Positions 4,180 to 59,878 of a DNA stretch of 64,000 bases are shown piece by piece; position 1 is the first letter of the stretch, and each line of letters begins with the position of its first letter. Source of the stretch: Carcharhinus amblyrhynchos. Lineage: Eukaryota. The stretch covers positions 41,788,001 to 41,852,000 of the forward strand of contig OZ336875.1 in the NCBI GenBank assembly GCA_965287045.1. The letters are read 5' to 3'. The position numbers were made by a program, and so were the translations under genes. The notes under the pieces are model-generated. The model was not told the origin of the DNA. It saw nothing but the letters and a program-made list of their open reading frames with translations, and ran no database searches.

Positions 4180-4300
4180 CTCGTCCTGCTAAAATTAGAA
4201 ACGTTTTTTTTTCTCCCTTCCCGGTGTTCTTCAAGTGGTCGGGACCAATCGGGCTTCCCGGCGGCTCGGGTTTCACTATAAGACCTGGACTAATCATCTT
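4180..4300 (+). promoter_or_regulatory. Probable TNNT3 core promoter
   Basis: CpG-rich segment with a MEF2 consensus CTAAAATTAG (4189-4198), CCAAT (4245-4249), MEF3/Six-like TCGGGTTTC (4266-4274) and a TATA-like CTATAGA (~4276), followed ~100 nt later by a donor GTG|gtaaga at 4380/4381. Confidence 0.6.
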
Positions 4301-4304
4301 GTGG

Positions 4305-4380
4305 AGTGCAGCAGGACCGACAGCCTGGCTAAAGCCCACCAGGGATCCTCCCTCCACCCGTCAGTCCGCTTCGCTTTGTG
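4305..4380 (+). other. TNNT3: Probable non-coding exon 1 of TNNT3 (5' end approximate)
   Basis: Lies ~30 nt after the TATA-like element, has no ATG and ends at GTG|gtaaga. TNNT3 has an untranslated first exon in other vertebrates. Confidence 0.55.
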
Positions 4381-8610: not shown

Positions 8611-8651
8611 ACCCAAGGGGCCCAGCTCAAAATGTCTGACACTGAAGAAGT
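8611..8651 (+). CDS. TNNT3: TNNT3 exon 2 (ATG at 8632; MSDTEEV)
   Basis: (T)n-gcag acceptor, AAAATGTCTGACACTGAAGAAGT, gtaagt donor. Confidence 0.93.
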
Positions 8652-11600
8652 GTAAGTATTTATTTGAAGTATTATTAGTCATAACTTTGGTTAACCAATG
8701 CTTGGGATGACTCAGTTAAAGTAGATGAGCACCATCTCAGTTTTGCATTTTAAAGTCATTAAACGAATCAATGTTGATGTGATGCTGGATTATTTTATCT
8801 GTGAGTAACCCCCTGTTCTTTTCTCTTCTTGCAGGTATGAAGGTAAATGACAGCATCATTTGGCTGACATGCAGAAATGGAGTGAATCCAATCTTTTTAC
8901 ACACACGTATTGTAATCCTTGTAATAATCTCTTGGTTGTGTAGCATGAGGATTCTATCACATTCTAATGTCTAGTTGTTCACAATTCTTCATTTTTTATC
9001 TTAAGTTTTGGCCAATATTATTGTGTAATATTTAAGATAATTTTGATTTCAACATAAACCCTTGTGGGTTAATTTGAAGTTATGGAGCATGCCAGCGCCA
9101 CACTGGTTCCAATAGTGAAGCAGCCAGAACTATTCTGAGACTGTCTTTACTTAAATAGAACCAGGGCCAATGGGGTATCCAGATTCAGCTCACTTTATCC
9201 AAATTGACTCAATGTCAAGTGCTCTGGGAGAAAGGTGATGGGAGTTGTAGCCCTAGTGGGTAGTGGCCCAGTTAATTTTGTGGAGATTGATGTAGTACCC
9301 TGTTCTTCCCATCCCATAGTTAATAACTTCAAACTTACCTTTCCAATGAATGGTTACAGGCACAGAAGGAGGCTATTTGGCTCCAGTTGTCCGTTCTGGC
9401 TCTCTGCAAGAGTTATTCAGTTAACACCCCTCCATATTGCCCATTTTTCCCCATATTGCCATTGGTTCTTTTGCCATTCACCTTAATCCAATATCCTCTG
9501 GTCCTTGATCTTTCTGTGTCGATCCCCCATGATTTTGGATGCTTCTATCCAATCTCCTCTCATCCTACTTAAAGGAGCCATGATGTGGAGATGCCGGCGT
9601 CGGACTGGGATGAGCACAGCAAGAAGTCTCACAACACCAAGTTAAAGTTCAACAAGTTTCTTTGGAATCACAAACTTTCAGAGCGCCACTCCTTCTCCCA
9701 ATGAAGGAGCAGCGCTCTGAAAGTCCATGATTCCAAATAAACCTGTTGATCTTTAACCCGGTGTTGTGAGACTTCTTACTACTCAAAGGAAAATGTTCCA
9801 GCTTCTCTAATCTATCCTTAAAACTGAAATTCTTCATCATTGGAACCTCAGAAATCTTCTCTGCACACTATCTGAAGCCTAAAATGTAATAACCAAATTT
9901 GGGTACAATATTCCAACTGAAGTCAAAGCAATGTTTTAGAAAGATTCATCATGACTTATTTGCTTTTATAATCTTACACTTCTTTTTATAAAGCTGAAGA
10001 TCACATATTCCTTTTGAATCACTTTCTCAACTTGTCCTGCCACTTGTGCAGATATACCTCTCAGTCTCTCAATTTCTACACTTTCTTTGTAATTATACCC
10101 ATTATTTTATATTGCCTTTTCCTCATTCTTCTGATTGAAATGTATCACTTTTCACTTCTCTGTATTAAATTTAACATGTCCATCCCTTCCACCAACCTAC
10201 CCGTAGCTTCCTGAAGTCAATCATTATCCTCTTCACAGATTGCAATACTTCAAAATCTTATGCCATTTGCAAATTTTGAGACTTGTGCACCCAAATTTAG
10301 CTCATTAATGTAGATCATTAATGTAGATCAAGGAAAGCTGATGCCCCTTCAGTATATTCTTCCAATCCAAAAAATGTACATTCATCATTACTTTCTGTTT
10401 CCTGTCACATCACATTTGTTCCCATCTATTCCATGGATTTCAACATATCAAATGCTTTAGGCAGCCCAAATACACCACATTACCCTCCACAACTCTATCT
10501 CTTACCTCGTCACAAAACTCAATTAAGTTAGTTAATCATGATTTGACTTTAAGAAATCTTTGCTGCACTAATCCACATTTACCCAAGAGACTGTTAATTT
10601 TGTCCTGGTTTATCATTTCTCAATGTCTTCCTACCAACCAATAATAAACTGAATGGCCTTGCTGAGTTTATCCTTTACCCATCTTTTTGAACAAGGGTGT
10701 AACACTTGCCATTCTCCAGTCCTCTGTCATTATCCTTGAACTATGGATGATTGGAAAATTATAGTCAGTCCCTCTGCAATTTACATCTGTACATCTTAGT
10801 ATCACTGGATATATTCCATCTGGTCCTGGTATTAGAAAGACTGGTTGCAATGTATAGTTTAAATTATAAAGATAGCAAAAATAATGGCAGAGGGTGTGGC
10901 AAGAATCCAGAGTGATGCTTTTATATTATTTACAATTGAATCACAATTTTTTGTTTTACAAAAATGTCAGTACTTAAAAATCAAACTTTTAATGAAACAA
11001 AATAGAAAACTGTTCAGGGAGCATAATGGTCAGCAGATTCAACCCACTTGTTTTATGTCCCTGCCATTGGTAAAGGTGCTGGTGTATTTCTTTATAGTAG
11101 GAAGTCTCACAACACCAGGTTAAAGTCCAACAGATTTATTTGGTAGCAAAAGCCACCAGCTTTTGGAGCACTGCTCCTTTGTCAGGTAAGTGGGAGTTCT
11201 GTTCACAAACAGGGCATATAAAGGCACAAAACTCAATTTACAAAGTAATGGTTGGAATGCGATCTTTACAGGTAATCAAGTCTTAAAGGTGCAGACAATG
11301 TGAGTGGAGAGAGGGTTAAGCACAGGTCAAAGAGATGTGTATTGTCTCCAGCCAGGACGGTTAGTGAGATCTTGCAAGTCCAGGCAAGGTGTGGGGGTTA
11401 CAGATAGTGTGACATGAACCCAGTTGAGGCTGTCCTCATATGTGCGGAACTTGGCTATCAGTCTCTGCTCAGTGACTCTGCGTTGTCCTGTGTTGTGAAG
11501 GCCACTTTGGAGAACGCTTACCTGAAGATCAGAGGCCAAATGCTCGTGACTGCTGAAGTGTTCCCCAACAGGAAGTGATCACTCTTGCCTGGTGAGCAGT

Positions 11601-14600
11601 GTTCATTCATCCATTGTCGTTGCATCTGCGTGGTCTCCCCAATGTACCATGCCTTGAGACATCCTTTCCTGCAGGGTATCGTGTAGATAACGTTGGCCGA
11701 GTTGCAAAAGTATGTACTGTGTACCTGGTGGATGGTGTTCTCATGTGAGATGATGACATCCATGTCGATGATCCGGCACGTCTTGCAGAGGTTGCTGTGG
11801 CAGGCTTGTGTGGTGTTGTGATCACTATTCTCCTGAAGGCTGGGTAGTTTGCTGCGGACAATGGTCTGTTTGAGGTTGTGCAGTTGTTTGAAGGCAAGAA
11901 GTGGGGGTATGGGAATGGCCTTGGCAAGATGTTTGTCTTCATCAATGACATGTTGAAGGCTCCAGAGAAGATGTCATAGCTTCTCTGCTCCAGGGAAGTA
12001 CTGGATGACGAAGGGTACTTTATCCACCATGTCCCGTGTTTGTCTTCTGAGGAGGTCAGTGCCGTTTTTCGCTGTGGTGCATTGGAACTGTTGATTGATG
12101 AGTCAAGTGCCATATCCTGTTCTTATGAGGGCATCTTTCAGTGTCGGGAGGTGTCTGTTGTGATCCTCCTCATCTGAGCAGATTCTGTGTATATGGAGGG
12201 CTTGTCCATAGGGGATGGTTTCTTTAATGTATTTAGGGTGGAAGCTGGAGAAGTGGAGCATTGTGAGATTATCTGTGGGCTTGTGGTACAGTGAGGTGCT
12301 GAGGTGACTGTCCTTAATGGAGATGTGTGTGTCCAAGAATGCAACCGATTCCAGAGAGTAGTCTATGGTGAGTCTGATAGTGGACCTTGACGATGTCATC
12401 ATATAGTTGTTCCAGTGATTGCTCACCATGAGTCCAAAGGAAAAAAATGTCATTGATGTATCTAGTGTATAGCATCAGCTGAAGGTCCTGTGCAGTGAAG
12501 AGGTCTTGTTTGAATATGTGCATGGAGATGTTGGCATATTGAAGTTCGAATTTGGTCCCTATGGCTGTTCCGTTTGTAAGGATGAAATACTGGTTGTTGA
12601 AGGTGAAGACATTGTGGTCCGGATGTAGTGGATGAGTTGTAAAATTGCATTGGGAAACTGGCAGTTGTCGGCATTGAGTACTGAGGCAGTTGCAGCAATG
12701 CCATTGTCGTGGGGGATGCTGGTGTAGAGTGCCAAGACATCCATTGTGACGAGGCGTGCTCCTGGTTCAACTGCTCCATATGTGCTGAGTTTCTGTAGTG
12801 TTGTGACAAAAGCTGGGGGTTCTTTGTACAATGGGTTTCAGGATGTCCTCAACATAGCTGGAGAGGTTCTCACACAGGATCCCATTGCCCGATACGATGG
12901 GACAGCCGGGTATGTTTGCCTTATGTATCTTCAGGAGTATTTCTTTATACCAGTTGACTGCTGTGTTGTCAATCAAGACTGTGGCATCAAATGAGTGATT
13001 ACAGTCATTGATTGTGTTGTGGTTGATAGAACTCCTTACCTTTTGATTGCCCACACTGTGCATCTGTATGCCTATGTGACTAATATTTGTGAACTATGGG
13101 AAGAATCAATACAATTTTTATTAAGTTGCTTAGTTGCAATGGCAAAGCTCTATATAAAAATCTTGTATCTTAAATAAATATTTGATTCAATTGTTCTTTA
13201 TATTCTAGTATGTAAATGTATCAATTTTTACATGTTGACATAGAGATGGCATCTATACGTATTTGAACTGCTTCAACAATTATTTCAAAGCACTCTTGTT
13301 CAGGGTTCTCTTAGTTTATATGTTTCCATTTATACTTTCAGAAATTCCTTTCCCAGTTTAATGTTGATTTATTTAATATTTTAGTCTATAATTATATTGA
13401 TTTGGAATTAATATAATTGTCAATTTTCCAAAAATACTTCTACATTTTTTTATTTTATAATTTTTATTAAACATATTGCAGTATTTTGTACAGCATTTCT
13501 CTGAGGTTGGAAGCATCAGTCGCTGAACTTCAACCTCAGTTTGGATCTGATGGTTGTTCTGTGAACCTGGTTGAAGTCTGCACATCTGCCATTATGATTA
13601 GAGAGATATTCTGGTTCATGGAAATTTTCTGTTTTCCCTTTCCCCTTTCCCTCTGCGATACTTTTTGAGTTGAGTTCTATTGGTCTGCACAAGTGGCGTC
13701 TTGTAGCTTGTTAGATATTGTTTTGTGGATTGGATGTCTAAAATCTAAGAATTGTTTTTTTTTAAAAATGGTCTCCCCCAGTTTTCTCTCTGTGTCAGAA
13801 AGTGTCAACTCCTTGCAATGATGTTTGAAGCCATTCTTCAACTCAAGCCTCGCCAGTGAGTGATAGCAGACTATTTGAACATATCTTTTTAACCAGACCC
13901 CGTGAGTACTGGCAGGCCTCTGGAACATTGCCTGAGTGGCCATTCTTCTTACTTGAACCTGAGTGGTGAGTGTTGGCAGGTCAGACAAAGCATCACAACC
14001 ATATCTAATCCTTTTTTGACTTGATTTTCCTATGTGTCCACTCTCAAGCTGAAGTCACTGAACGAGATTTCTGGATGATTCCTTTGCTCTGCCTACTTTA
14101 GGATGCTCTGGTCAATTGTGTCCCAAATTGTGCCCTAACTGAGAGCCATTAATTCACCCCAGAGTAGAGGTGAAAGCCTGGGCCTTCTAGTTAGAGCCAA
14201 TTGATTTCTTCAATTTACAGCTGGCTAATGGTTCAGGATTTTTCCTATGGATCCTGTGGTTGATATCCATGGTGAAGGCATTGTAAAGAATGAAGACTGA
14301 GTTTGCTGCAAATAATCACCATCTGTTATCTCTGGTGTTGGATTATAGAACATGAAGAACATGGAGAACATGAAGAGGGAGGTAATGATAATGATTCCCA
14401 ATTTCTCTTTGTATTGCCCCTGCCATCTTTTACTTATATATAACTTAACAATACAAAACAATTCCAGCACTCTTAATGTTGTAATATCATGAAGGGCAAG
14501 CATTTCAGCATTTTTTGAACTATGGCTGCACAGGGCTAATTTGTACTTCTGTACCTTGCCCAAGCAACCAAGGTATGTTGACAGATGATCTGACTTTGGA

Positions 14601-17600
14601 AGCATCACAGCAGAACCTAATCTTGTCCTCACCCAGCATCTACACATGGAGTTACAGCAGAGTATATCGATAGGGATCGTTAAGTGGGAAGTGATGTTTT
14701 TCCTATGCCTGGCTCAAAGCCATTGGGAACAACCGTAATGCTGCCACCAACATCCTGTCTGAATCCTGGCTGACTAAGCAAGGACTAAGGATTCAGCCTG
14801 GAGCCTTCCAGTAACATCTCACTTACCTACTGGGGTTTTCCCCTCGTTTTCTTTTATTGTTAGTCATTTCTTACCATACACCATCTGAGAAAATTTTGAT
14901 TTAAGTATTTCCCCTTACCTAGCTTAGCTCAGCGATGGAACTCATCCAAGGGCACAAACACTGCTCCTTACCAGTTTATAACATACACACATGATTACTA
15001 AATAACAACTGCAATGGAACTCACTTGGATCTTAATTGCTTGTTGAAAAAGTAGGTGTATGTTTTCACTGGGTGCCGAAAAGAACAAACAAATATGTGAC
15101 ATGATGTGCCAACTTTTAAATCAAATCACAGCATGAGTAGTACTGAGGGCTAGTAAGTGTCTAATATCTGCCTTCACCTAACATCAATAAAAATAATAGA
15201 TAACTTTTAAGAATAGGCTATTGGATAAATGTATTTACAATTTGATTTGGCTAACAAAAGAATGTGAAATTCTGATATATGCAATTGGTTAAAGTTTTTA
15301 AGTTTATATATTAGTGTCGCAAATGGCTTATGTTAACACTGTAATGAAGTTAGTGTGAAAATTCCCTAGTCACCACACTCTGGCACCTTTTGGGTACACT
15401 GAGGGAGAATTTAGCATGGCTAATGCACCCAACAAGCATGTCTTTCAGACTGTGAGAAGAAACTAGAGTATCCAGACGAAACCCACATGGGAGAATATGC
15501 AGACTCTGCACAGACAGTGACCTCAGCCAGGAATCAAACCTGAGTCCCTAGCATTGTGAGGCAGCAGTGCTAACCACTGTGCCGTTGTGTTAGTTAGGTG
15601 ATAGGTCAGCCTCACCCATATTAATTTCAAGAAGAAATGTTTACATTGGTTTCTTGGTATAAACTTAGCTCTGTGTGTTTAGGATGTCACCTGGACAAAG
15701 AAATTGGTTATAAAAGTGCAGTGTCAGAACAAATTAAACTTAAATATCTAACTACTTATAGAAAGTGTTTGCATATATCACGATTTCATGTTGATTTGAA
15801 TTTGGAAATGTAAATAAAATTGCAAATGAGTACTGAGTGAACTTGTAGCTCGAATGACATTTCAATTGTAAGCAAGTTTTGATGTCATGGAATTGATCTT
15901 AATTGTGGTAACAGTGAATTAAAATGTTTTTGATCTGTTAGAAAAGTTTGATCTTGAGCATGGTATGGACTTCTTTGTAGGTGCAATTATCAAAACCAAT
16001 TTTAAGTGGGTTCCATTCTACCTGTAATAATTCACAATCCTTATTCTTAAAAATCTGTCAACCCTACAAATCTCAGATTTCCAAAATCCATTTTGACATT
16101 TAATAATCACTACTTCCTCATTCATCCAACATTTTCTACTATTCTTTTCAACATTACTTGTGTCATTCAATGTGGACTTTTATCTTTCACGCTGTTCTCC
16201 TAAATCAAAGACAATGAAGGAAAAGGTTGTACTGTAACCTGACCAAGGATGGTGCAGACTAATGTGCACCTGATCAAATATCATTTCATGTGTCTACAAC
16301 GATGAACAGATTTTTTGGTTGAGAAATTTCTGCAATAAAAGGTTCAATGTTAATCTTAATATTAGTGAAAAGGGAAAATGTTCTGCATTCTTTAAAAAAT
16401 GCGATTTAGGGTGAGTTGATTGCCTTTAGCAAAGGGATAAGCCTGAAATGTCAGGAATTTAAGAGTGTTGGAATGATACTTGTGATTTTTTTGTTTGGGT
16501 TCATGTGTAACAAAGTTGTCCTTTATTTCAACTATCAGATGGTTTTTCTGCATGCTGAAGTGAATTGCGGTGAAAGTTGTATTAATGGTGTCAGGGTGTG
16601 ATGTTTTGTTCTTGTGCAGATTTTAAATTGTATACTGGTGTCTCCTGATGTAACTTATAACATATTGATGTCAATATTGTTCCTTTTCTGCTTTTCCACC
16701 TTGTGCTTTTCAATTGTCTGCACTGCTGCTTTTCTGCTTGCTGCATGCTAACGCCATCTTCAGAAGAAGGTATGTGGTATAAGTTAATTTTATCCCTACC
16801 TTTTCCTTATTCATTAATTTTTCCCTCACACTCCTTTGTCCTTTCCTTCGCCCTGAGCATTTCTTAGTTTTAGTTAGTTTTAGCATTTCTCTTTTTCCTT
16901 CTTTCTCCCTTATCTTTCCATTGCTCTGCTGTGCCCTGATTTTTTTCTTCATTCTACTGTTTAACCCTTATCTTGTTTTCTCTTGTTTACCTTTTCTCTT
17001 TCCATCATCGTTTCCTCTTGTATTGGTTTCCCTTTCTTCTCCAGCTTCATTTTCTTTTCTTTTCTTGTTTATTCTAGAATCCTGTATTTTCCTTTAATTG
17101 CAATGTTGTGAATCCTCTAGTTTTCCCAATAATTGCATATCCTCCCTGTTATAACTGTGTACGCTTCATTATCCCCAACACTTGTGTATCCTAGACTATC
17201 CCAAATATTCTATTTCCTTCATTATTACGATATTTCTGTATCCTCCATTTTCCCCTATAATTATGTATCCTACATTATCCCTAATAATTGTCTACTCTAC
17301 ACTATCCCCAATAATCCTGATTCCTACATTATCCCAATAATATCCTTCGTTATCCTCAATAATTTTGTTCATTATCCCTAATCATTCTACATCCCCCATT
17401 ACCAATTATTGTGCACCCTTCCATAGCTCTAATCCTTTTGCATCTATTCCTTCCTTTTCAGTTCGTATGTATTCTTCTTTCCCATTCAATTTCCATGGTT
17501 ATCCCCAAAAAGTGTATATCACTCATTACCCCAATCATCATGTGATATCTTGAAATTTCCCTTGTTATTATTACTACTTATAGAAATTCAGGAATTTTTA

Positions 17601-20600
17601 ATTGGGATAATTTGAGCAGCTTTTGATTGGGAGAGATATGATAAATACTTAACTATTGGGCTATTAATTGTTCTGAGGCTAGACAACCTTTGTGTTAAGT
17701 TAGTGATGCTGAAAAGTGACCCTTGTTGCTTTTTGTTAATTTATTGGTTCATTTTGATGTTGTTCTGTTTCTGGCATGTTCTTGTCTTTTGCTTTTCAAT
17801 GCTCAGTATTAAAACAAATTTTGCTTCTTTGTATTTGCTACTTGTTGTATGTACCTGGCATTTCCCAGAAGCGTACGCTGAAGAAGGTATGTCGCTGTCT
17901 GTTATTCCAAGTCACCTTTCCTGGAAACATTTTAGACCAGTTATATTTTGGAACTGTCAGACTCTCTGATAATGGGAATAGTTTTATCCCGCCCTGCTTG
18001 GTGAACACAGTTAAAGTAGCTGTGCAAAGACCTTCCCACTAAATACTATCTTAACTGGGCCCTTCATACATGTCTGAGATGTCTGCCTGATTCATTTGGG
18101 ATATCATTAGTGACTTTCTTCCTCTTCCCGTACCTCGTGGTGCACAAAGGCAAACTTTTGTCTGTTTCCACAGCAAATTATTCCTGCGATAGGTCACTCA
18201 CTAATTTATTGTCAGCGGCTTATAGCTTGAGAGGTGCCACTCTGCATCAATCCTGGCTGACCAGTTGTCTCTCCATTCCTACTCCCTGCCATTGGCACGT
18301 TGAAATGATTTTGCAGGCTGAAACTCAACTTGTTTGTCCGCGTTTTGAGCGCACTTTCCATAGCTCTCAGATCCTGGGCTTGGACTCGAACCCTGAGCTT
18401 CTAGCTCAGAGGTAGCGATACTATTCACTGTGTCCCAAGACCTCATCATTACTGATATCTAGAATATTATTTGGGCTCAATAGCTTATTGAGCAGGGTGC
18501 TCATGTGAACCACCTGTTCTTCAAAATGTGGAAGGAAAGTGAAGGAACAAGTCCTCTAATTCGAGTGGCCATCTGGAGGAGAAGGGCTGGCGCGATTCAA
18601 AAGATGTGAATCAGCTGGATGGATTAAAATGGAAAGGAGAATTTACTACTGTGGACAAACGTTTTCCTACAAAATATAACCCAAATTCGCGCTGACATCT
18701 CTTTGCCAAGTCCAAATCAAAATGGAAGGGGTTTTGGAAAAGATATGCATAGGTCATAACTGGAGTTGTGATGTTGCATGGGAACATAGAAACAGGAGTG
18801 GATTATCGTTAAGGCAGTCACTGTACTCGCACCTACCTTCTTCAAACCCTGGAATGGGAACCATGTGGCCCTGGTTACCGTCACTTTTTTCATGCCATTC
18901 ATTTATCCATTACTGTTATCTTGTTTCTGCTAATGTTGCTTCAATTCTTTGCCTGATTCAATGGGTTTCCTTGGGATATCTAAAATGCTGACCTCTTTCT
19001 CTAAGTGCAAAAGTAAGCCAATTATTCAACATGCCAGATATTTCCTTATTACCCTTACTGATGATTGTGTCAACATTATCAGTTTTTAAGAGGCCAACAT
19101 TGCTTCTGAGCACCCTTTTCTCCCCCTGATTGTAATTGTGAGTTGTTTTATGTTAATTTGTTTTCATCCTCCCTTTTTGTGGCTTTGTAGTCCCTTATTG
19201 TTCTTTGTATCTCTCCCAGCTGCCAGGGTCTGTGTTTTATATCCTCTTTCTTTTAATTTTTGTGTTGATTCTTACCTCTTTAGTTGTCCCTAGCTGCTTA
19301 TTTGGCAAGCAGAAACACTTGTCTTTTAGAAGTATAGACTGTTCTGTATCACAAATTCATTACTTAACACCTCTCACCAACCTTCTACTTAACCCATTTA
19401 CACATTTGCCCCTTTTGTTGCGAAGCATTTCTGCCTCATTTCATTGAAGTCAGCCTTACCTAAAATCTAGAGTCTTAATAGCTATTCCCTTCAAACTCAG
19501 TTTGGATCTGATGGTTGTTCTGTGAACCTGATTAAAGTCTGCACATCTGCCATTATGATTAGAGAGATATTCTGGTTCATGGAAATTTTCTGTTTTCCCT
19601 TTCCCCTTTCCCTCTGCGATACTTTTTGAGTTGAGTTCTATTGGTCTGCACAAGTGGCGTCTTGTAGCTTGTTAGATATTGTTTTGTGGATTGGATGTCT
19701 AAAATCTAAGAATTGTTTTTTTTTAAAAATGGTCTCCCCCAGTTTTCTCTCTGTGTCAGGAAGTGTCAACTCCTTGCAATGATGTTTGAAGCCATTCTTC
19801 AACTCAAGCCTTGCCAGTGAGTGATAGCAGACTATTTGAACATATCTTTTTAACCAGACCCCGTGAGTACTGGCAGGCCTCTGGAACATTGCCTGAGTGG
19901 CCATTCTTCTTACTTGAACCTGAGTGGTGAGTGTTGGCAGGTCAGACAAAGCATCACAACCATATCTAATCCTTTTTTGACTTGATTTTCCTATGTGTCC
20001 ACTCTCGAGCTGAAGTCACTGAACGAGATTTCTGGATGATTCCTTTGCTCTGCCTACTTTAGGATGCTCTGGTCAATTGTGTCCCAAATTGTGCCCTAAC
20101 TGAGAGCCATTAATTCACCCCAGAGTAGAGGTGAAAGCCTGGGCCTTCTAGTTAGAGCCAATTGATTTCTTCAATTTACAGCTGGCTAATGGTTCAGGAT
20201 TTTTCCTATGGATCCTGTGGTTGATATCCATGGTGAAGGCAGTGTAAAGAATGAAGACTGAGTTTGCTGCAAATAATCACCATCTGTTATCTCTGGTGTT
20301 GGATTATAGAACATGAAGAACATGGAGAACATGAAGAGGGAGGTAATGATAATGATTCCCAATTTCTCTTTGTATTGCCCCTGCCATCTTTTACTTATAT
20401 ATAACTTAACAATACAAACAATTCCAGCACTCTTAATGTTGTAATATCATGAAGGGCAAGCATTTCAGCATTTTTTGAACTATGGCTGCACAGGGCTAAT
20501 TTGTACTTCTGTACCTTGCCCAAGCAACCAAGGTATGTTGACAGATGATCTGACTTTGGAAGCATCACAGCAGAACCTAATCTTGTCCTCACCCAGCATC

Positions 20601-23600
20601 TACACATGGAGTTACAGCAGAGTATATCGATAGGGATCGTTAAGTGGGAAGTGATGTTTTTCCTATGCCTGGCTCAAAGCCATTGGGAACAACCGTAATG
20701 CTGCCACCAACATCCTGTCTGAATCCTGGCTGACTAAGCAAGGACTAAGGATTCAGCCTGGAGCCTTCCAGTAACATCTCACTTACCTACTGGGGTTTTC
20801 CCCTCGTTTTCTTTTATTGTTAGTCATTTCTTACCATACACCATCTGAGAAAATTTTGATTTAAGTATTTCCCCTTACCTAGCTTAGCTCAGCGATGGAA
20901 CTCATCCAAGGGCACAAACACTGCTCCTTACCAGTTTATAACACACACACATGATTACTAAATAACAACTGCAATGGAACTCACTTGGATCTTAATTGCT
21001 TGTTGAAAAAGTAGGTGTATGTTTTCACTGGGTGCAGAAAAGAACAAACAAATATGTGACATGATGTGCCAACTTTTAAATCAAATCACAGCATGAGTAG
21101 TACTGAGGGCTAGTAAGTGTCTAATATCTGCCTTCACCTAACATCAATAAAAATAATAGATAACTTTTAAGAATAGGCTATTGGATAAATGTATTTACAA
21201 TTTGATTTGGCTAACAAAAGAATGTGAAATTCTGATATATGCAATTGGTTAAAGTTTTTAAGTTTATATATTAGTGTCGCAAATGGCTTATGTTAACACT
21301 GTAATGAAGTTAGTGTGAAAATTCCCTAGTCACCACACTCTGGCACCTTTTGGGTACACTGAGGGAGAATTTAGCATGGCTAATGCACCCAACAAGCATG
21401 TCTTTCAGACTGTGAGAAGAAACTAGAGTATCCAGACGAAACCCACATGGGAGAATATGCAGACTCTGCACAGACAGTGACCTCAGCCAGGAATCAAACC
21501 TGAGTCCCTAGCATTGTGAGGCAGCAGTGCTAACCACTGTGCCGTTGTGTTAGTTAGGTGATAGGTCAGCCTCACCCATATTAATTTCAAGAAGAAATGT
21601 TTACATTGGTTTCTTGGTATAAACTTAGCTCTGTGTGTTTAGGATGTCACCTGGACAAAGAAATTGGTTATAAAAGTGCAGTGTCAGAACAAATTAAACT
21701 TAAATATCTAACTACTTATAGAAAGTGTTTGCATATATCACGATTTCATGTTGATTTGAATTTGGAAATGTAAATAAAATTGCAAATGAGTACTGAGTGA
21801 ATTTGTAGCTCGAATGACATTTCAATTGTAAGCAAGTTTTGATGTCATGGAATTGATCTTAATTGTGGTAACAGTGAATTAAAATGTTTTTGATCTGTTA
21901 GAAAAGTTTGATCTTCAGCATGGTATGGACTTCTTTGTAGGTGCAATTATCAAAACCAATTTTAAGTGGGTTCCATTCTACCTGTAATAATTCACAATCC
22001 TTATTCTTAAAAATCTGTCAACCCTACAAATCTCAGATTTCCAAAATCCATTTTGACATTTAATAATCACTACTTCCTCATTCATCCAACATTTTCTACT
22101 ATTCTTTTCAACATTACTTGTGTCATTCAATGTGGACTTTTATCTTTCACGCTGTTCTCCTAAATCAAAGACAATGAAGAAAAAGGTTGTACTGTAACCT
22201 GACCAAGGATGGTGCAGACTAATGTGCACCTGATCAAATATCATTTCATGTGTCTACAACGATGAACAGATTTTTTGGTTGAGAAATTTCTGCAATAAAA
22301 GGTTCAATGTTAATCTTAATATTAGTGAAAAGGGAAAATGTTCTGCATTCTTTAAAAAATGCGATTTAGGGTGAGTTGATTGCCTTTAGCAAAGGGATAA
22401 GCCTGAAATGTCAGGAATTTAAGAGTGTTGGAATGATACTTGTGATTTTTTTGATTGGGTTCATGTGTAACAAGGTTGTCCTTTATTTCAACTATCAGAT
22501 GGTTTTTCTGCATGCTGAAGTGAATTGCGGTGAAAGTTGTATTAATGGTGTCAGGGTGTGATGTTTTGTTCTTGTGCAGATTTTAAATTGTATACTGGTG
22601 TCTCCTGATATAACTTATAACATATTGATGTCAATATTGTTCCTTTTCTGCTTTTCCACCTTGTGCTTTTCAATTGTCTGCACTGCTGCTTTTCTGCTTG
22701 CTGCATGCTAATGCCATCTTCAGAAGAAGGTATGTGGTATAAGCTAATTTTATCCCTACCTTTTCCTTATTCATTAATTTTTCCCTCCCACTCCTTTGTC
22801 CTTTCCTTCACCCTGAGCATTTCTTAGTTTTAGTTAGTTTTAGCATTTCTCTTTTTCCTTCTTTCTCCCTTATCTTTCCACTGCTCTGCTGTGCCCTGAT
22901 TTTTTTCTTCATTCTACTGTTTAACCCTTATCTTGTTTTCTCTTGTTTACCTTTTCTCTTTCCATCATCGTTTCCTCTTGTATTGGTTTCCCTTTCTTCT
23001 CCAGCTTCATTTTCTTTTCTTGTTTATTCTAGAATCCTGTATTTTCCTTTAATTGCAATGTTGTGAATCCTCTAGTTTTCCCAATAATTACATATCCTCC
23101 CTGTTATAACTGTGTACGCTTCATTATCCCCAACACTTGTGTATCCTAGACTATCCCAAATATTCTGTTTCCTTCATTATTACAATATTTCTGTATCCTC
23201 CATTTTCCCCTATAATTATGTATCCTACATTATCCCTAATAATTGTCTACTCTACACTATCCCCAATAATCCTGATTCCTACATTATCCCAATAATATCC
23301 TTCGTTATCCTCAATAATTTTGTTCATTATCCCTAATCATTCTACATCCCCCATTACCAATTATTGTGCACCCTTCCATAGCTCTAATCCTTTTGCATCT
23401 ATTCCTTCCTTTTCAGTTCGTATGTATTCTTCTTTCCCATTCAATTTCCATGGTTATCCCCAAAAAGTGTATATCACTCATTACCCCAATCATCATGTGA
23501 TGTCTTGAAATTTCCCTTGTTATTATTACTACTTATAGAAATTCAGGAATTTTTAATTGGGATAATTTGAGCAGCTTTTGATTGGGAGAGATATGATAAA

Positions 23601-26600
23601 TACTTAACTATTGGGCTATTAATTGTTCTGAGGCTAGACAACCTTTGTGTTAAGTTAGTGATGCTGAAAAGTGACCCTTGTTGCTTTTTGTTAATTTATT
23701 GGTTCATTTTGATGTTGTTCTGTTTCTGGCATGTTCTTGTCTTTTGCTTTTCAATGCTCAGTATTAAAACAAATTTTGCTTCTTTGTATTTGCTACTTGT
23801 TGTATGTACCTGGCATTTCCCAGAAGCGTACGCTGAAGAAGGTATGTCGCTGTCTGTTATTCCAAGTCACCTTTCCTGGAAACATTTTAGACCAGTTACA
23901 TTTTGGAACTGTCAGACTCTCTGATAATGGGAATAGTTTTATCCCGCCCTGCTTGGTGAACACAGTTAAAGTAGCTGTGCAAAGACCTTCCCACTAAATA
24001 CTATCTTAACTGGGCCCTTCATACATGTCTGAGATGTCTGCCTGATTCATTTGGGATATCATTAGTGACTTTCTTCCTCTTCCCGTACCTCGTGGTGCAC
24101 AAAGGCAAACTTTTGTCTGTTTCCACAGCAAATTATTCCTGCGATAGGTCACTCACTAATTTATTGTCAGCGGCTTATAGCTTGAGAGGTGCCACTCTGC
24201 ATCAATCCTGGCTGACCAGTTGTCTCTCCATTCCTACTCCCTGCCATTGGCACGTTGAAATGATTTTGCAGGCTGAAACTCAACTTGTTTGTCCGCGTTT
24301 TGAGCGCACTTTCCATAGCTCTCAGATCCTGGGCTTGGACTCGAACCCTGAGCTTCTAGCTCAGAGGTAGCGATACTATTCACTGCGTCCCAAGACCTCA
24401 TCATTACTGATATCTAGAATATTATTTGGGCTCAATAGCTTATTGAGCAGGATGCTCATGTGAACCACCTGTTCTTCAAAATGTGGAAGGAAAGTGAAGG
24501 AACAAGTCCTCTAATTCGAGTGGCCATCTGGAGGAGAAGGGCTGGCGCGATTCAAAAGATGTGAATCAGCTGGATGGATTAAAATGGAAAGGAGAATTTA
24601 CTACTGTGGACAAACGTTTTCCTACAAAATATAACCCAAATTCGCGCTGACATCTCTTTGCCAAGTCCAAATCAAAATGGAAGGGGTTTTGGAAAAGATA
24701 TGCATAGGTCATAACTGGAGTTGTGATGTTGCATGGGAACATAGAAACAGGAGTGGATTATCGTTAAGGCAGTCACTGTACTCGCACCTACCTTCTTCAA
24801 ACCCTGGAATGGGAACCATGTGGCCCTGGTTACCGTCACTTTTTTCATGCCATTCATTTATCCATTACTGTTATCTTGTTTCTGCTAATGTTGCTTCAAT
24901 TCTTTGCCTGATTCAATGGGTTTCCTTGGGATATCTAAAATGCTGACCTCTTTCTCTAAGTGCAAAAGTAAGCCAATTATTCAACATGCCAGATATTTCC
25001 TTATTACCCTTACTGATGATTGTGTCAACATTATCAGTTTTTAAGAGGCCAACATTGCTTCTGAGCACCCTTTTCTCCCCCTGATTGTAATTGTGAGTTG
25101 TTTTATGTTAATTTGTTTTCATCCTCCCTTTTTGTGGCTTTGTAGTCCCTTATTGTTCTTTGTATCTCTCCCAGCTGCCAGGGTCTGTGTTTTATATCCT
25201 CTTTCTTTTAATTTTTGTGTTGATTCTTACCTCTTTAGTTGTCCCTAGCTGCTTATTTGGCAAGCAGAAACACTTGTCTTTTAGAAGTATAGACTGTTCT
25301 GTATCACAAATTCATTACTGAACACCTCTCACCAACCTTCTACTTAACCCATTTACACATTTGCCCCTTTTGTTGCGAAGCATTTCTGCCTCATTTCATT
25401 GAAGTCAGCCTTACCTAAAATCTAGAGTCTTAATAGCTATTCCCTTTCAAACACCATGTTGAACTCTGTCACATTAGGTAAATGCTTATGCATTTTTAGG
25501 GGTGTTAACTAAACCTATCTCATTACTTAATCTAATTTGCTCCCTTGTTGGTTCTTGGGCATGCATTGCAGAACACACTCAAGAAATTCATCACCTTTCT
25601 GACATATCTGCCTATCCCAATTGATATGAGAGTTACAATCCTCCATTAAAACCACTCTACCATTGCTAGACACTTGTCTATTCTCAGTGTTTATACAAGG
25701 CACCATAAACACCTTGTGCCAGGAGACGTATGCACAACTCTCACAAGTCTTAAATCTTTTTTTATTTCTTATTTCTACCCATAAAGTCTCCACCTCCCAT
25801 TATATACTCTGAAAGTGGACTGTCCAATGTGAAAAATAAGACCAGTGACAACCAAAAAAATCTGTTGGTTTGGTTTATATTCTAAACAGCAATCTTTTGT
25901 TGTTTTGAGTAAAAGACATATTATTAAATCTACAATTCATGATGTTGGTCATATCAAAACCTAATATAATTGTTTGAGTGTGAATGTTATACGTTATGTT
26001 ACCTTCTATATGTTTTGCCACCATCCAATATTTATGATACAGCTGAAGATTTGTCAGTGGCTTAGTATTTGTTCACGGACAGTTTATTAAACATAGCTTT
26101 GAATGCTACGTAACCCGGCTTCATATTTATGATGATGGATGAAGAATGTTTGAACACTGACAAAGGACAAATATGGAGACTGTTTATCCCTGTTGGTGTG
26201 AAAGATTTTTATTCCTGACGTTCAGGAATATAAGGGTGATTGAATGATATCTATCATGTTTTTATTTTGGGTTCATGTCTGTCGAAGTGCGCTTTGTTGT
26301 AACAATTAATTGGTGTATGTTACCTAAGTAAGTTTGGAGTGAATGTATGTGAAGGAGGAGACTTTTGCTTCTGTGTATATTTCTCTTTATTCTTATACTA
26401 GTTTTTACTGCTAACAAATATAAGTAAAAGTCAATATTGTTCCTTTTATGCTTTTCTGTCTTGTCCCTTTCAATCCCTGCATTGCTTCTTTTCTGCTTGC
26501 TGTACATTAACACCATTTTCAGAAGAGATTGCTGAAGAAGGTATGTAATGCAATATCCATTTACGCTCCCTTTTTTTTCTTTTTTCCTCTTATTGTCCTT

Positions 26601-29600
26601 TTAGTTTCCTTCATTTTTATTTTCCCTCTTGTTTTTCCTTTTATCCTTATATTTTGTCATTTCATTTTCTTCTTCATTCCCCCTTTCCTTTTCATCGAAT
26701 GTTATGTTCTGATCCTTTTTTTATTTCAGTCCTCTGTTTTACCTTCATTCTCTTTTTCTCTCATTTGCTTTTTTTCTCTTCTAATTTTCATTTGCATGTT
26801 ACTGTTTTTCCCTTGTTTTATTACCTCCTCATGTTCATTTACTTATCCTCAATCATTCCACTTCATTATCAATTCCAATGATGTCGTATCCTTCATTTTG
26901 CCCATTATTTTGCATTAATCATCCCAATCATTCTGTATCCATCATAGTTCCTAATTATTCTGTGTTCATCTGCATCCTCAATGCTTATGTATCACCCATC
27001 ATCACCATTTATTAGTGAGATATTATAATTTCCTTCATTACTCCTTAGTTTCTGTTTCTATTAGATAAAATTTAATCAGCTTTTGATAACATGAGTGATG
27101 GAGGCATTGCCAATATGTAATTATAGGGCTATTAATTGTTCTGGGAATAGCTAAACTAAGTTGGTAATCTATGCTGAAAAGGTAACCCTCTTGCATTTAG
27201 TTTAATGATTTGTTAGTTCTTCTTGGGGCAGCCCTGCGTCTGCTGCATTGACATCTTTTGCTCTTCAACGCTTAGTATTAACATGTATTTTGCTTCTTTG
27301 TATTTGCTGCTCACTGCATGTACCTGACTTCTCCCAGAAGTGCACCATGAAGAAGGTATGTTGCTCTTTGCTGTTTTTTATAAATCATGCATGGGATTCC
27401 AAGTTATTTCAAATCTCTTTTTCAGGGAATGCTTTGGACAAGTTATATTGTCCCTTTCCAGCCAGTGTGTAGCTAATATTGCTGTGCAAAGAATTTCCAC
27501 CTATTACCACTTGATTCTGCTTGCTACCTCTTAACTGAGGCCTTGTAGAGGTTGCCAAGGTGCATGTTTGACTCAGGAGGGTACCACATTTAATTAGATC
27601 CTTATCTTGGCATTCAAATTCAGATTGCATTTTAATGGCCTATTGCATATCTGCTCATCTTGATTATCCTGCTCAATAAAACCTGTTGGGGAAGAAGTGC
27701 CTTTAGTTTTGTTTTGTGTAATTTTACATTTTAAACCATATTTTTTGGGTGTTTCATCGAAGGATGTGTCATTTAATCTACAATTCATTTACTTGATCAT
27801 CTTCAAAACACAATGTATGTCCTGACCGTGAAAGTTCTACATTTATATGTCACCCTCTGTATATTATGTCATCAACTAATAATTGTGACACAATAGAAGA
27901 CTTGTGGATAGAGTTTGCTCATGGATAGTCCATAGACACAACTGTGTCTGGCACATATCCTAATTTCATATTTATGGTTAGGGAATGGATAATTGAGAGC
28001 ATTAGCTAAGAATTAAAGAAAGAAATATGCTATGAATCTGTTATTCTGAGTAATTTTATGTGCATCTAGAAACATTTAATTTTATTTACATATAGCTATA
28101 AAGTAATGCATATAAATGAACACATGAGGTTAGAATTAGCCTTGATTATGCCAAAACCATAACCTAAGCAGAGGATTGAATCCATGTTGGCAGTCAAGGT
28201 GTAGTTAGCTATACTCACGTTGTTGATTCTCACCGAGCGCAATCACTGCTCAATTTAATACAATTCCACGTGTGATTCTGGACTCCAAGTAATTGTCCGA
28301 ATAGGGCCAGGTGATGTACGACAGAGGGTTTTAATTGTTAGCAAGATGGTCAAATGAGTGTCAAGCAGCCTGCAAAATAGGCCCCATCTGACAGAGTTGG
28401 TTCAGTTTAATCCTGAGAAAGAAGTCAGAGCACAAACACATCTGACTGAAATCAGGCTTTGATACACATCAAACTATTCTGACCTCCAATCAATAGTGCA
28501 AGCAAGGTGTTCCATATCCTGAGTGAATCTTTAGCGCAGAATGAATCAGTGCAAGCCCACAGTCAGTCTACAAATTTCACTAAGTCGAATAACGATCCTG
28601 AACACATTGACTTAATCTTGTTTTACTCTGTTGTGTTTTTTTCATTGCAATGGACAGTTTATGGAAACGAAGATGAAGACGGTATTTTTGCTTTATCACC
28701 AACATAAATTTACCCCACTGAATTCTAACTGTTTTCTCCTTCCCCCTAATTCTCTGGGGTTAATTCTTCTAAACGTGTGGCTTGAGGTGATCCAGTAGCA
28801 GTCTATATATAACACATTATATAGCTGCGAGATTCAGCTAGTACTTCGACTAACAGATTTCAATTTCGTGTTCACTACATGTACTATGACCTGATTATTT
28901 TTGGTTTAATTCACAGTGCTGGTTGCTAAAATATTAATGTTTTGTCTGTTACACTGTCAGTTTCATAATCGTGTCTTCATTTCATAATTCAACTTAATTT
29001 CTTGGAGGATTAGTGTGTGTGCTTTGGCTGATAACATTGGTAGCATAATGTGCCAAATTAGAAAGTGGTGTAAATATGAGTTGGGTGACATGGCTGGACT
29101 GTGAGAGTATTAACAAGAGGTCCTGACTCGAAGCTGTGCATCAGCTTCTCTGCTGCAGAAAGGTCAGGCTAAAATGGATGCAAAGGTTATAAATTGGGTG
29201 AGGATAGTGTGACAGATTTAATCTTCACACTGCCCACTCCCGCAAAACAACTTTTTTTTTCAAAAGACTGGCAAAATTCTAAAATGGAAGCGTTAATTTT
29301 CAAACTGTTGAAAATCATGCAGGATTTTGTATCACCCCCTTTAACTGTTTTTTTAAAATCACATTTTGTTACCTGATTTCCTCTAAAGGGAAATGCAACA
29401 TTTAATGAATCAGAAGTGGGGACAATCTAAGGCTATAAGTACCTTGATTGGCTTTAATGGCACTGTGATCTGTCACTGAGGAGAGCAATTGCATTGTGTT
29501 TATATGTGTGGCGCCACTTTTTCGGAAATAACCCCACACATTGGTGAATCAATAGATCAGTTGGCCTCGTTCGCTGGCATTCACTCAGTGGTATGCTGAT

Positions 29601-32600: not shown

Positions 32601-35600
32601 GGATTCCATGTATGGCTTTACCAATGTCATGTACAACTTCAACTAGACATCCCAACTCCTGTATTCAATGTTCTGACCGATGAAACCAAGCATGCTGAAT
32701 GCCTTCTTCATCACTCTGTCCATCTGTGACTTCACTTTCAAGAAGGTGTTTACACGATGTTCTTTGTTCTGTAACTCTCCCCAATGTCCTACCATTAACT
32801 GAGTAAGTCCTGCCCTGGTTCAATTCACTGATAAATGATCACATAGGAATAATGCACATTTGAATGAGATACTGAACAATGACCACCACCTGTAGAACCG
32901 TTCCTAACATGGAGTCAACACCTTCAGGGAAAAAAAAAATTTAACCTGTAATGTGGCAGATTGTACTTTTTTTTCCAGAAAAAAAAGCTACAATATTTTG
33001 ATGTCATTTATGTGGTACTTTGTCTTTAATTTTGTATGAAATGGCTAATTTCATTTTTATTTTTTGTTTTGTTTTGTTTTACTACAGAGGAGGAAAAGCC
33101 AAGGATGAAGTGAGTAGCGATTTGAAGATTTATTTAACACAGGAACACTTCTAAAATGTTAATTCGCCAAAGGCTTTCATCAGCTCCATTGCTTTGTTTG
33201 GCTCTGGGACTCCAGTCATAACTCGCTGAGGAGCAGAATATTAATTGAGCCTGGGTTTTATCATTTTTCCTCTGCTCCTTTTTCTTTCCCAATAGGAGAA
33301 AGCAAAGAGAAACTCACCTGCAGGTGGTGTTGTCCTAGCACCTAAATTGTTTTGCAAAACTATAAAATGCATTGTTTTGCACTCCTGTCTAATTCTATGG
33401 AGAAACTTCTGGCTACAAATGCAACCATTGTGGGACTGGAATGTTAGAAGTTGAATATTCTGTACTGCAGCAGATTAGTAGATGACGGAGAGTGATCCAT
33501 GTATAAATTGCTGTTCAGATTTGGCAATCCCAGTAAAAGGTTAGTGGAACAATGATACTGTAATGGGCAGGAGGATAGGTAATCAGAGGATGCAGATTTA
33601 AGACGATTGCCCCATATAGGAGGCAGATGAGTAAACATTTTTATGTGGCCAGTTAAGATCCGTGTGAGAGGGTGGTGGAAGCGTACTCTTACTCAAAATG
33701 AAAACATTTACAAGGTGATGGAGAAAGAACAGAATAAATTGGGTAGGAATTTCAAAGGGCCAGTACAGGCACAATGGGGGGAATGGATGCTGCATCATTC
33801 CCTTGTTTTTGTACGATACAATCCAAAAGAAGACAATGTGAGTGTAAAATTTGCTCCTATAAGCAATCAGTTTCAGTGTTTCCAGTTTCTGTCTATGGAT
33901 TCTGCTCTTAGAGCTAAGCTCCCAGCCTGACTATGGGATGAATAGAGATAGAGGCTAGATTATTTGCACCATTCTCAAAAGTTGCAGGTTGCAGATAGAA
34001 TGACAAAATTGTAGCTCTAATTTGACAGCCCACATTGCCATCAAATGCAGTTTTTTTTTGGCATTTAGGGTCATGGCATTACCCTGTGATCTGTATGGGA
34101 ATGTATATTTAAAAAAGCTGACTGAATAAATAATGTAATCTGTATACGTTATTGCAAATCTTGCAGAGCTTGCAAACTTTCTATCCATATACCTTGCTTT
34201 CCATTGATAGAAAAACATGCCAAAAACATTGTGACAACATGTATCATTGTTCATTGCTATGTCAATATTTTCAACTTGTGCAACATGGTATCCCTGATGA
34301 TAAATATTGTTCTTTTCCTGTCCATGCCTTTCCAAGTTGTGTCTTGTTCCCCATTTCTTTTTTTTCATGAATTCCCATCTACTTCCCTCCAGCTTTTCCT
34401 CTGTGCATCTCTTTTTCTCTCACCTTCACTGTCTTTCTATTTCTCTCCTTTTCTGCCTGTCTCTCCTGTTCTGTCATGTTTTTCTCTTTTGACTCCCTCA
34501 TCATGTGTGCTATTTTCTAAATTTTCTGTTCCCCTCCCTGACCTTTCTTTCTGTGTGTCTGTGTGTGTGTTTCTCTATTCCTAATTTCCTTCTCATTCTT
34601 CTTCCCATGTGGTTCTCTCCTTCCCTTCTGCCTGCCTTATCCTTCTGTATTTACCCCCTTTCGATCCATTTGTCCCACCTCTGTTCTATCCTGGTTCTTT
34701 CCCTCTCCTCCACTTCCATTTCTGTCTTTCTATTGCTTTTTTTCTGCCCATGTGTTTCTTCTTCCCTTCTTGTCCCTTATTTCTTTGTCATCCATCTTTT
34801 GTTTGTTGCATTCTCTCTGTTGCTGTTCTCTAACTTGTGTTCCTTTCTCTTGTCATTTGTAGATATCTCTTTCTAAGTTGTTTGTCCAGGGTAATTCAGG
34901 GATCCCATTCTCTCTAATTTGAACTTTTGTTCAAAGGAACTAACCCTAATTCTCTGATGCATGTTTCCATTGAGTGTGACTCAATGCTTGGAGGGCAAGA
35001 GGTGCTAAATTTTATCCATTCTTCTACTTTGCTGTATTCACTTTCCCTTTTTGTTACCTTCCCCTGGTCAGCTTGCCATGGGAAGATTGGGGAATGAGAG
35101 GGAAGTGAGCAGTCTAGACAACTGACACGGGTCATGAGAGTTTATTGGGGTTACCACGCTACTATGGGGAACAGGAAAGAGCTGACCAGGATCATTACAA
35201 CAGTGCAAGGTGCAACAAGAGCTTTTAAGTAGTGGTGATGATAGTCCGTTGTGGCAACTGTGGAAAAAGAATGGCCCTGGAAAGGACAGTGTAATGGGTG
35301 GATAATCCACCAATATATCCACCAATGTTTAGAGTGAAAATTGCTGCAGTGTCTTTAACTGAAAAAAAATTGTGGAGGCGGATACGTGATGCAGAGCAGT
35401 AGAGATAGCGATTAGGGTATTGAAATTGAAAATGTTTCATTTCCCAGAGTGCACACAGCCTTCATCAGAGTGAAGAAGCAATTCACAGAGAAAGCTCCAA
35501 AAACTATCACAACCTGTTTACAGTTCTAGCTGTCATTAATTCTTGTTCCATTATTACAGAATGTCTGCTCCCAAAATCCCAGAGGGAGAGAAAGTTGACT

Positions 35601-59552: not shown

Positions 59553-59878
59553 TTTGGGCGGTGCACCAGGTGGCGGGGCAGGGTTTGGCCGGTGCACCAG
59601 GTGGCGGGGAAGGGTTTGGCCGGTGCACCAGGTGGCGGGGAAGGGTTTGGCCGGTGCACCAGGTGGCGGGGAAGGGTTTGGCCGGTGCACCAGGTGGCGG
59701 GGAACTGTTTGGGCGGTGCACCGTTTGGCGGGGAAGTATTTGGGGGGTGCACCATATGGCGGGGAAGTGTTTGGGCGGTGCACCAGGTGGCGGGGAAGTG
59801 TTTGGGCGGTGCACCAGGTGGCGGGGAAGTGTTTGGGCGGTGCACCAGGTGGCGGGGAAGTGTTTGGGCGGTGCACCA
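59553..59878 (+). repeat. 31-bp GC-rich minisatellite, ~10.5 copies, core GCACCAGGTGGCG (CTCF-like)
   Basis: GTGCACC recurs exactly every 31 nt from 59561 to 59871. Confidence 0.95.

Follow-up and report, generated by a model that had tools for sequence, protein, structure and literature searches.

A 5.96-kb tandem duplication with in-frame mini-exons in the fast-muscle troponin T gene of a shark

Why should almost 6 kb of DNA stand twice, head to tail and nearly unchanged, inside a shark muscle gene? The repeat could be an error of assembly, a very recent and still variable event, or an older one whose copies have been kept alike. In the window (the whole stretch of 64,000 nucleotides analysed), the two copies of the unit lie at 13528..19488 (5961 bp, with ends that may slide by 3 bp) and 19489..25443 (5955 bp); exons and unit copies are all given here on the plus strand. 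The segments 13528-19496 and 19489-25452 form a single blastn match of 5970 columns at 99.4% identity. The copies differ by 27 internal substitutions (27/5953, or 0.45%), by internal indels of 1 bp and 5 bp, and by a C/A difference at the end (13534/19495). The match and the difference count bear out an earlier note on this DNA, which described a tandem duplication of about 5.96 kb with copies differing at a few dozen positions; the three boundary strings it quoted match the sequence. The duplication is a real tandem event in the shark fast-muscle troponin T gene and carries in-frame mini-exons. We prefer the view, which we hold at a probability of about 0.7 as a whole, that a single non-homologous duplication, apparently fixed, was later homogenised and offers the gene a wider menu of isoforms.

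By sequence comparison the gene is TNNT3, fast skeletal troponin T. Its constant part has 89-96% identity with 12 named TNNT3 proteins from sharks and rays, and with one unnamed, and the named matches are of TNNT3 types. Fast TnT stood above cardiac in a PDB comparison (30.5 vs. 27.2 bits), and Pfam PF00992 scored 34.8 bits against a cut-off of 26.2, on one exon. TNNI2, LSP1 and PRR33 are given as syntenic with TNNT3 in the accessible portion of PMC9825255. The first coding exon (8611..8651, start codon at 8632) is followed by an 8-nt exon (8835..8842) that, from the frame, sets phase 1. Seven constant exons (33088..41557) were placed by tblastn with shark proteins and by frame, at 33088-33109, 35560-35605, 36606-36722, 37350-37427, 38442-38555, 39975-40084 and 41467-41557; they are also backed by Pfam Troponin and by joints and loose ends in the spliced run X6 (see below). 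The alpha-type and beta-type exons, 41 nt each, lie at 45641..45681 and 46906..46946, as placed by frame and shark models; each keeps the frame, and shark models end in two C-terminal versions that match them. The last coding exon, with the stop, is at 51993..52041 by frame.

The duplicated unit lies between the 8-nt exon and the constant part, where nine phase-1 exons with lengths divisible by three occur between 14349 and 28681. Exon H (14349..14381 and 20310..20342) has 33 nt, framed by AG..GT, and encodes 11 residues of His/Glu character in phase 1 and in frame; its copies are identical, its acceptor is pyrimidine-poor, and relatives have a single exon of this type. Exon A (16764..16769 and 22724..22729) has only 6 nt (EE, phase 1, AG..GT), 12 nt less than its old paralog at 26523. 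Exon B (17869..17886 and 23824..23841) has 18 nt (EAYAEE, phase 1, AG..GT). Downstream of the unit, exon C (26523..26540, 18 nt, EEIAEE) is an ancient paralog of exon A, with flanks 69% alike (z 18.8 vs. shuffles), and exon D (27338..27355, 18 nt, EVHHEE) is an ancient paralog of exon B, with flanks 72% alike (z 28.0). The peptide of exon D occurs in 27 of the 283 proteins fetched. Exon F (28658..28681, 24 nt, VYGNEDED) takes the place of the mammalian foetal exon, by position only, and its VYGNE is also found in catshark models. A lenient rescan of 8843-33087 gave no further convincing exon.

The content of the unit alters what the event can add to the protein. The earlier note counted two copied exons, both multiples of three and in phase 1, and a gain of EEEAYAEE in frame. 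The 6-nt and 18-nt exons are real and the gain is in frame, but exon H is copied as well, so that up to 57 nt and 19 residues may be gained rather than 24 nt and 8. Since all three are phase-1 cassettes with splice signals, any choice among them keeps the frame. The note also saw exon birth in progress. These are instead copies of old exons, because the peptide of the 18-nt exon occurs also in a ray (Narcine model P0090).

Is the second copy present in the animals? Of 22 listed runs, four from three studies were compared: X1, X4 and X5 are DNA-type, and X6, under another organism label, is spliced and taken as RNA solely from its GT..AG joints, no listed holder of the stretch being recorded as RNA. 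A further 16 holders, with shares of 0.17-0.94, do not enter the evidence. Depths of contigs served solely as within-run ratios of long pieces, and not as copy number; in these terms unit and flank stood at 39.9/21.2 in X1, 27.7/14.8 in X4 and 21.7/8.7 in X5 (1.9, 1.9 and 2.5x). In all three, unit contigs stop at 25446; they begin at 19489 in X4 and X5, and at 19496 in X1. The junction is bridged by X6 record 24 (19425-20337, no gaps), X6 being the sole run with a bridging record listed. The same run shows both exits from the unit end, record 24 passing over the junction and record 27 into the right flank, and the two records begin on the same 30 bases. X1 has no differences from the window over 10.7 kb of flank and is probably the source of the assembly itself; as X4 comes from the same study, the independent support is that of X5 and X6.

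An assembler that split two haplotypes could in principle have produced the repeat, and a distance of 0.45% is comparable in size to the nucleotide diversity of sharks (0.002 in the epaulette shark; PMC10587355). Half the depth and nothing over the junction were named in the earlier note as the signs of such a false duplication. The opposite was seen, with about double the depth in three of three DNA-type runs and a contig over the junction in X6, an unrelated run. With contigs also breaking precisely where the unit ends, the chance of a split haplotype becomes negligible, and an assembly artefact is rejected. All four runs carry the duplication, which thus seems to be fixed among these samples.

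The junction says little about the pathway. The exact overlap is CTT at 19489..19491, 3 bp common to 13528-13530 and 25444-25446, which accounts for the join without any additional change. The earlier note read a TTCAA(A/C)C microhomology at this place; its boundary strings stand, but the overlap is hardly above chance, as three or more shared bases occur in 6.1% of 200,000 random joins. TTCAA as a meaningful homology is rejected, since an equally good local match, in 21-base windows round both ends, arises in 43.5% of 20,000 random pairs. Non-allelic homologous recombination is likewise rejected: the breakpoints have no shared repeat, and their scores (22-24) are equalled by 18-39% of random 500-bp pairs. 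A single non-homologous event, be it a template switch or end-joining at the 3-bp overlap, would account for the duplication of 5.96 kb, presumably in an ancestor of closely related sharks and within TNNT3's N-terminal variable region. In the accessible accounts of intragenic tandem duplications attributed to MMBIR, FoSTeS or MMEJ, the unit is also head to tail, with repeat-free ends and a short overlap at the join; here, however, 3 bp are too short to separate such a pathway from plain end-joining.

How old is the event? Against the window, X5 differs at 56/5741 positions in the unit and 62/8724 in the flank, and X6 at 55/5876 and 75/10670, that is, 0.94-0.98% in the unit and 0.70-0.71% in the flank, vs. 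0.45% between the copies. By Fisher tests of copy-copy against ortholog distance, p is 0.0009 (X5) and 0.0018 (X6) in the unit, and 0.051 and 0.049 in the flank; the flank test is borderline, unequal lineage rates could inflate the ortholog distance, and polishing could even out the copies. The event is older than the split of these two carriers from the lineage of the window, since both have the duplication at such a divergence from the window.

It follows that "very recent", as the earlier note had it, is not supported. A still polymorphic copy-number variant, the note's further suggestion, would suit the 99.4% identity, and the ratio of 2.5 in X5 leaves room for further change in copy number. 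But the duplication is in all four runs, including two that stand 0.7% away from the window and bear different organism labels, and each DNA-type ratio is at least 1.9x, compared with 1.5x for a heterozygote. The copy-copy distance is also twice the 0.21% that separates X1 from X4 in the flank (p 0.007). We therefore consider a recent variant very improbable, small as the sample is.

The copies have probably been homogenised by gene conversion. Their exchange, whether by conversion or by unequal crossing-over, would explain why they look younger than they are, and is suggested by the divergence and by shared variants. At 21132, at 23971 and at a 1-bp indel at 22335, the assembled copies have in common a state that is missing from the contigs of X4, X5 and X6. 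At two of these sites X1 carries the other state at about a quarter of its depth (12/49 at 21132 and 9.6/48.1 at 23971, unphased and in one individual). Shared polymorphism between copies is a strong sign of conversion in the accessible text of PMC3924837. Of the 26 covered sites, the collapsed contigs of X1 agree with copy 2 at 22 (binomial p 0.0005), and those of X4 agree with copy 1 at 18 of 27 among the rows listed. These preferences hint that copy types have moved from one position to the other, but do not amount to proof, since contig tie-breaking is not known to be random. It should be noted that both copies are merged in these Logan contigs, from which rare variants are also lost; hence the relatives' copies are not seen apart.

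Alternatively, a real and shared duplication may have copies that evolve independently, their low distance reflecting a slow lineage, chance or assembly polishing. The flank-based test, at p of about 0.05, would tolerate this, and seven copy-1 states found in X4 are missing from the X5 and X6 contigs, as would be the case had copy 1 retained a separate history for some time. The differences are also not significantly non-uniform along the unit overall (KS p 0.23), although 12 of the 27 crowd into one 1-kb stretch (p 0.028, the width having been chosen after looking). Against independence stand the in-unit test (p 0.001-0.002) and the 3:1 ratio at two sites in the data of X1 itself, a pattern that polishing could not create. 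Independent copies thus seem unlikely to us, and homogenisation remains our preferred reading.

What do the extra exons do? In X6, exon H is spliced to the acceptors of B, C and F, and exon skipping is seen. GT..AG joints lead from the donor of the second H copy to the acceptors at 26523 and 28658, and a loose end before 23822 fits the end of exon H; in each case the copy used is indistinguishable. Another loose end, before 26521, is formed by 2 contigs (agreement 0.78); a mixture of the ends of exons B and A would account for it, which hints weakly that mRNA includes the 6-nt exon A. With all exons included the frame is open over 289 residues, and the N-terminal segment goes from 29 to 40 acidic residues and from 5 to 8 His. 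Each copy holds three optional phase-1 exons, and the likely effect is a wider isoform menu with up to 19 residues more. By analogy with birds and mammals, a longer acidic N-terminus would adjust the thin filament in its Ca2+ sensitivity, its tolerance of acid and its binding of metal, leaving the binding core untouched.

The second copy may instead be redundant, each transcript taking one H, A or B and harmless drift having brought an old duplication to fixation. Such redundancy concerns function and is compatible with the proposed history. No joint linking exons of both copies in one transcript is seen among the 15 of 413 X6 joints listed, but contigs show presence, not absence. The window's H peptide is in none of the 283 fetched proteins, among which there is also no doubled unit and no protein of the window's species, so that no doubled form is in evidence there. 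The 57 nt of exon, identical between copies, have no power to show selection. On the other side, every splice site and branch region is kept in both copies, with the 150 bases upstream differing at 0-3 positions, and the models of the white shark join as many as five exons of this kind. We regard redundancy as possible but would not favor it; were it true, this would be an ordinary tolerated duplication. The locus illustrates, cleanly and in a form that can be dated, the growth of troponin T's hypervariable end, by a block of same-phase mini-exons with their introns, usable at once. Moreover, 99.4% identity in sharks need not mean a recent event, as the unit is common across organism labels and probably homogenised.

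We found no published account of this duplication in a search confined largely to papers free of subscription; the words 'exon' and 'histidine' are absent from the main text of PMC9825255. Known systems offer partial likenesses. In the concerted evolution of tandem duplicates, as the accessible text of PMC3924837 presents it, paralogs are also nearer than orthologs, variants are common to the copies and the duplicates look too young, whereas the unit here is intragenic and mostly intronic rather than made of whole genes. Vertebrate TNNT3 (human exons 4-8 and the foetal exon), as far as the accessible portions of PMC2447309 and PMC11016001 describe it, is the same gene and region, with short acidic cassette exons of the same phase and a 3' alpha/beta pair; in the shark, by comparison, a three-exon block and its introns stand twice at 99.4% identity with a readable genomic junction.

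The avian P exons, which encode Tx of fast TnT, are likewise tandem His/Glu mini-exons in the same gene region. As given in the accessible portions of PMC11016001 and PMC7581897, Tx has four to seven P-exon pentapeptide repeats, is pectoral-specific and has had its metal binding measured. The shark has two 11-residue H copies and two copies each of two Glu-rich exons, with at most 8 His in the N-terminal segment, all known from sequence alone, and no test made gave homology between its exons and the avian P exons. Its duplication resembles the first step of an expansion of the P-exon kind. It is doubtful, but worth stating, that sharks repeatedly and independently built a Tx-like, metal- or proton-binding His/Glu tip, seen here at its first doubling, fixed by selection and with conversion keeping both copies working. 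A tip described as avian-specific would then occur in sharks too, and the window would show that process near its beginning, with its breakpoint still readable.

A further parallel is in other sharks. In white shark RefSeq TNNT3 models (XP_041053846.1, P0147) and a basking shark model (P0142), the His/Glu exon stands several times at this same position. The white shark models, which are predicted, have five 8-residue repeats and 22 His, with only the His/Glu exon repeated, unlike the block seen here; the basking shark model has about six His/Glu repeats. Mini-exon duplication is an old habit of this gene, as the ancient pair in the window, the avian P exons and the white shark repeats attest, and a recognised means of extending its acidic end. 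Together with the white shark repeats, the present duplication provides a natural comparison for the role of His/Glu expansion in fast TnT, so far studied in birds.

The duplication lies within a troponin T gene on the + strand, of which 21 exons were found between 8611 and 52041. All internal exons are bounded by AG..GT, and with every N-terminal exon counted in, the reading frame is open for 289 residues. The constant part has 89-96% identity with TNNT3 (fast skeletal troponin T) proteins of sharks and rays, the protein matches Pfam Troponin, fast TnT ranks above cardiac TnT among PDB entries, and the alpha/beta exon pair is present. Two features point to a carcharhiniform shark: the MKMSAPK stretch, shared with Scyliorhinus canicula and Mustelus, and exons VYGNE and EIAEE, confined to catshark models among 283 fetched proteins. 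Upstream, a CpG-rich stretch (4232-4365) matches the spurious N-terminus of a bamboo shark model, P0140 (E 8e-9), and is possibly a conserved element, a neighbor's promoter or exon. That model fuses TNNT3 to a tail whose source name is DJ-1/PfpI; tblastn of the tail against the window gave no match. A CpG-rich spot at 59946-59994 likely contains the opening coding exon of the following gene, presumably resembling GATD1. The window also holds a GC-rich minisatellite (59553-59878; 31-bp unit, 10.5 copies, 94% matches) and an imperfect inverted repeat (9618-9780; 163 bp, 82%), likely what remains of a small transposon.

Aligned with itself, the window yields a single long match, 13528-19496 against 19489-25452 (5970 columns, 99.4%). 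Between the copies there are 27 internal substitutions, two indels of 1 bp and 5 bp, and a C/A difference at 13534/19495. The three boundary strings of the earlier note recur unchanged in the sequence; its TTCAA(A/C)C microhomology register requires a lost T in addition. The join is most simply read as a 3-bp overlap, CTT (13528-30, 19489-91, 25444-46), the unit running through CTT at its end and then past CTT at its start, with zero further changes. Among 200,000 random joins, 6.1% share at least three bases, and among 20,000 random window pairs, 43.5% reach a local match of TTCAA grade. Comparison of the breakpoints found no repeat common to both, so the event reads as non-homologous; 3 bp is too short to name the pathway. 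The unit contig starts at 19489 in X4 and X5 (DNA-type runs), so that in these runs the junction matches the left end from that base onward; the C/A difference appears to be a later change in the lineage of the window. A decayed minus-strand retroelement (11327-13093) lies outside the unit, 435 bases to its left; by eye it is Penelope-like, with a weak GIY-YIG match below cut-off (E 0.009).

Two phase-1, 3n exons had been described as copied. Both are present once per unit copy, A (6 nt) and B (18 nt), and a third of the same kind, H (33 nt, + strand; 14349-14381 and 20310-20342), had been overlooked. It is revealed by splice joints of the spliced run X6, from donor 20342 to acceptors 26523 and 28658, and X6 also shows a loose end before exon B that agrees with the final bases of H. 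None of the three exons differs between copies. Counting both units, the N-terminal segment lengthens from 51 to 70 residues, its acidic residues rise from 29 to 40 and its His from 5 to 8. The intron between A and B carries a degenerate 27-bp tandem array (17167-17378 and 23122-23333).

Of 22 runs listed, 20 had part of the stretch and four were compared over 19400-36800, depth being length-weighted contig depth, unit over flank, within one run. The ratio is 39.9/21.2 (1.88) in X1, probably the source of the assembly, 27.7/14.8 (1.88) in X4, another sample from the same study (flank difference 0.21%), and 21.7/8.7 (2.5) in X5. The last value (19489-25446), rather than 1.9, may reflect low-coverage noise or a haplotype carrying a third copy. 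Unit contigs stop at 25446 in these three runs, where the junction and exit paths part. In X6, which we infer to be RNA from its spliced joints, the kind being absent from the run record, record 24 covers 19425-20337 gap-free, beginning 64 bases to the left of the junction; record 27 starts on 30 bases shared with it and exits into the flank on the right. The unit is thus raised in depth, not halved, and its junction is crossed, the two checks proposed earlier; assembly false duplication is ruled out on both grounds, its probability being negligible. The earlier view of a very recent, polymorphic copy-number variant fares little better and is most improbable, since X5 and X6, from two further studies under two different organism labels, carry the unit although their flank distances to the window are 62/8724 and 75/10670 (~0.7%). 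At 7e-10 mutations per generation (epaulette shark, 95% CI 1.4-14.1e-10; PMC10587355), 0.7% corresponds to about 5 million generations, or to 2.5 million if the upper bound is used; the rate is borrowed and gives the order of magnitude only. The duplication is real; it is its content and age that are corrected.

Should the event be older than the divergence from X5 and X6, its copies are expected to be no closer to each other than orthologs are. Their distance is 27/5953 (0.45%), against 56/5741 (X5, p 0.0009) and 55/5876 (X6, p 0.0018) for the unit and ~0.70% for the flank (p 0.051 and 0.049), in a comparison where contigs collapse the copies, lineage rates may differ and polishing may even out the assembly. 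At 21132, 23971 and the indel at 22335, both assembled copies have a state absent from the X4, X5 and X6 contigs, the alternative making up about a quarter of depth at the first two in X1, in unphased data of one individual. Low copy distance and shared states are described in PMC3924837 as marks of gene conversion, which makes duplicates look too young. That the copies evolved independently is unlikely: unequal rates or polishing may lower their distance, and X4 shares with the window seven copy-1 states lacking in the X5 and X6 contigs, but the in-unit tests and the two X1 sites with a minority state speak against it. The seven states do make conversion patchy at most. We prefer, at a probability of about 0.7, a duplication that would have been shared with related sharks, then homogenized by gene conversion, and that offers optional longer isoforms.

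Older duplications underlie the region. The introns upstream of A and B match those of C and D (69%, z 18.8; 72%, z 28.0), in block pairs 16451-16769/26222-26540 and 17644-17896/27112-27365 with flanks 69-72% alike, from which A-B and C-D read as products of an earlier two-exon block duplication. In catshark, skate and Narcine models, four exons occupy these positions after a single H, which would place that event before the shark-ray split. The intron before D (27338-27355), mis-translated in ray and horn shark models, retains ~80% match, and such conservation suggests splicing elements. Exon A (16764-16769), now 6 nt, has lost 12 nt in comparison with C (26523-26540). C reads EEIAEE, the catshark peptide at position A, where other species have EEVV-type or EEVA-type at C; conversion of C by A, predating the shrinkage of A, might account for this. 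A 68% match between the introns before C and F (25923-26139/27771-27984) is perhaps another old duplication, though the 450 bases adjoining C and F (28658-28681) failed to align.

The N-terminal cassette exons keep frame in any mix, and splice sites of H, B, C and F are in use in one relative (X6). Inclusion of both units would yield optional isoforms with up to a 70-residue N-terminal segment. According to PMC11016001 and PMC7581897, a more acidic TnT N-terminus increases both Ca2+ sensitivity and tolerance of acid, and the His/Glu Tx segment of birds binds Zn2+ and Ca2+; by analogy, the longer segment here would tune these properties. No joint putting two copies in one mRNA occurs among the 15 of 413 X6 joints listed, as expected were the second exon set redundant, a possible but less favored view that concerns function only.

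The case belongs to TNNT3 and to intragenic tandem exon duplications. Our search found no published account of it or of His-rich shark TnT, supplements, which could hold shark alignments, being outside that search; PMC9825255, in its main text, covers shark troponin genes without their exons. Predicted white shark models (e.g., XP_041053846.1; P0147, P0026 and P0125) have up to five 8-residue His/Glu repeats in varying numbers and reach 22 His, equaling the longest of the turkey isoforms retrieved (P0275); a predicted basking shark model (P0142) has about six looser ones. These lamniform repeats look like an independent Tx-like expansion. The present unit failed the test for Tx membership, with two copies against four to seven repeats in birds, but it works like an early step towards such a segment.
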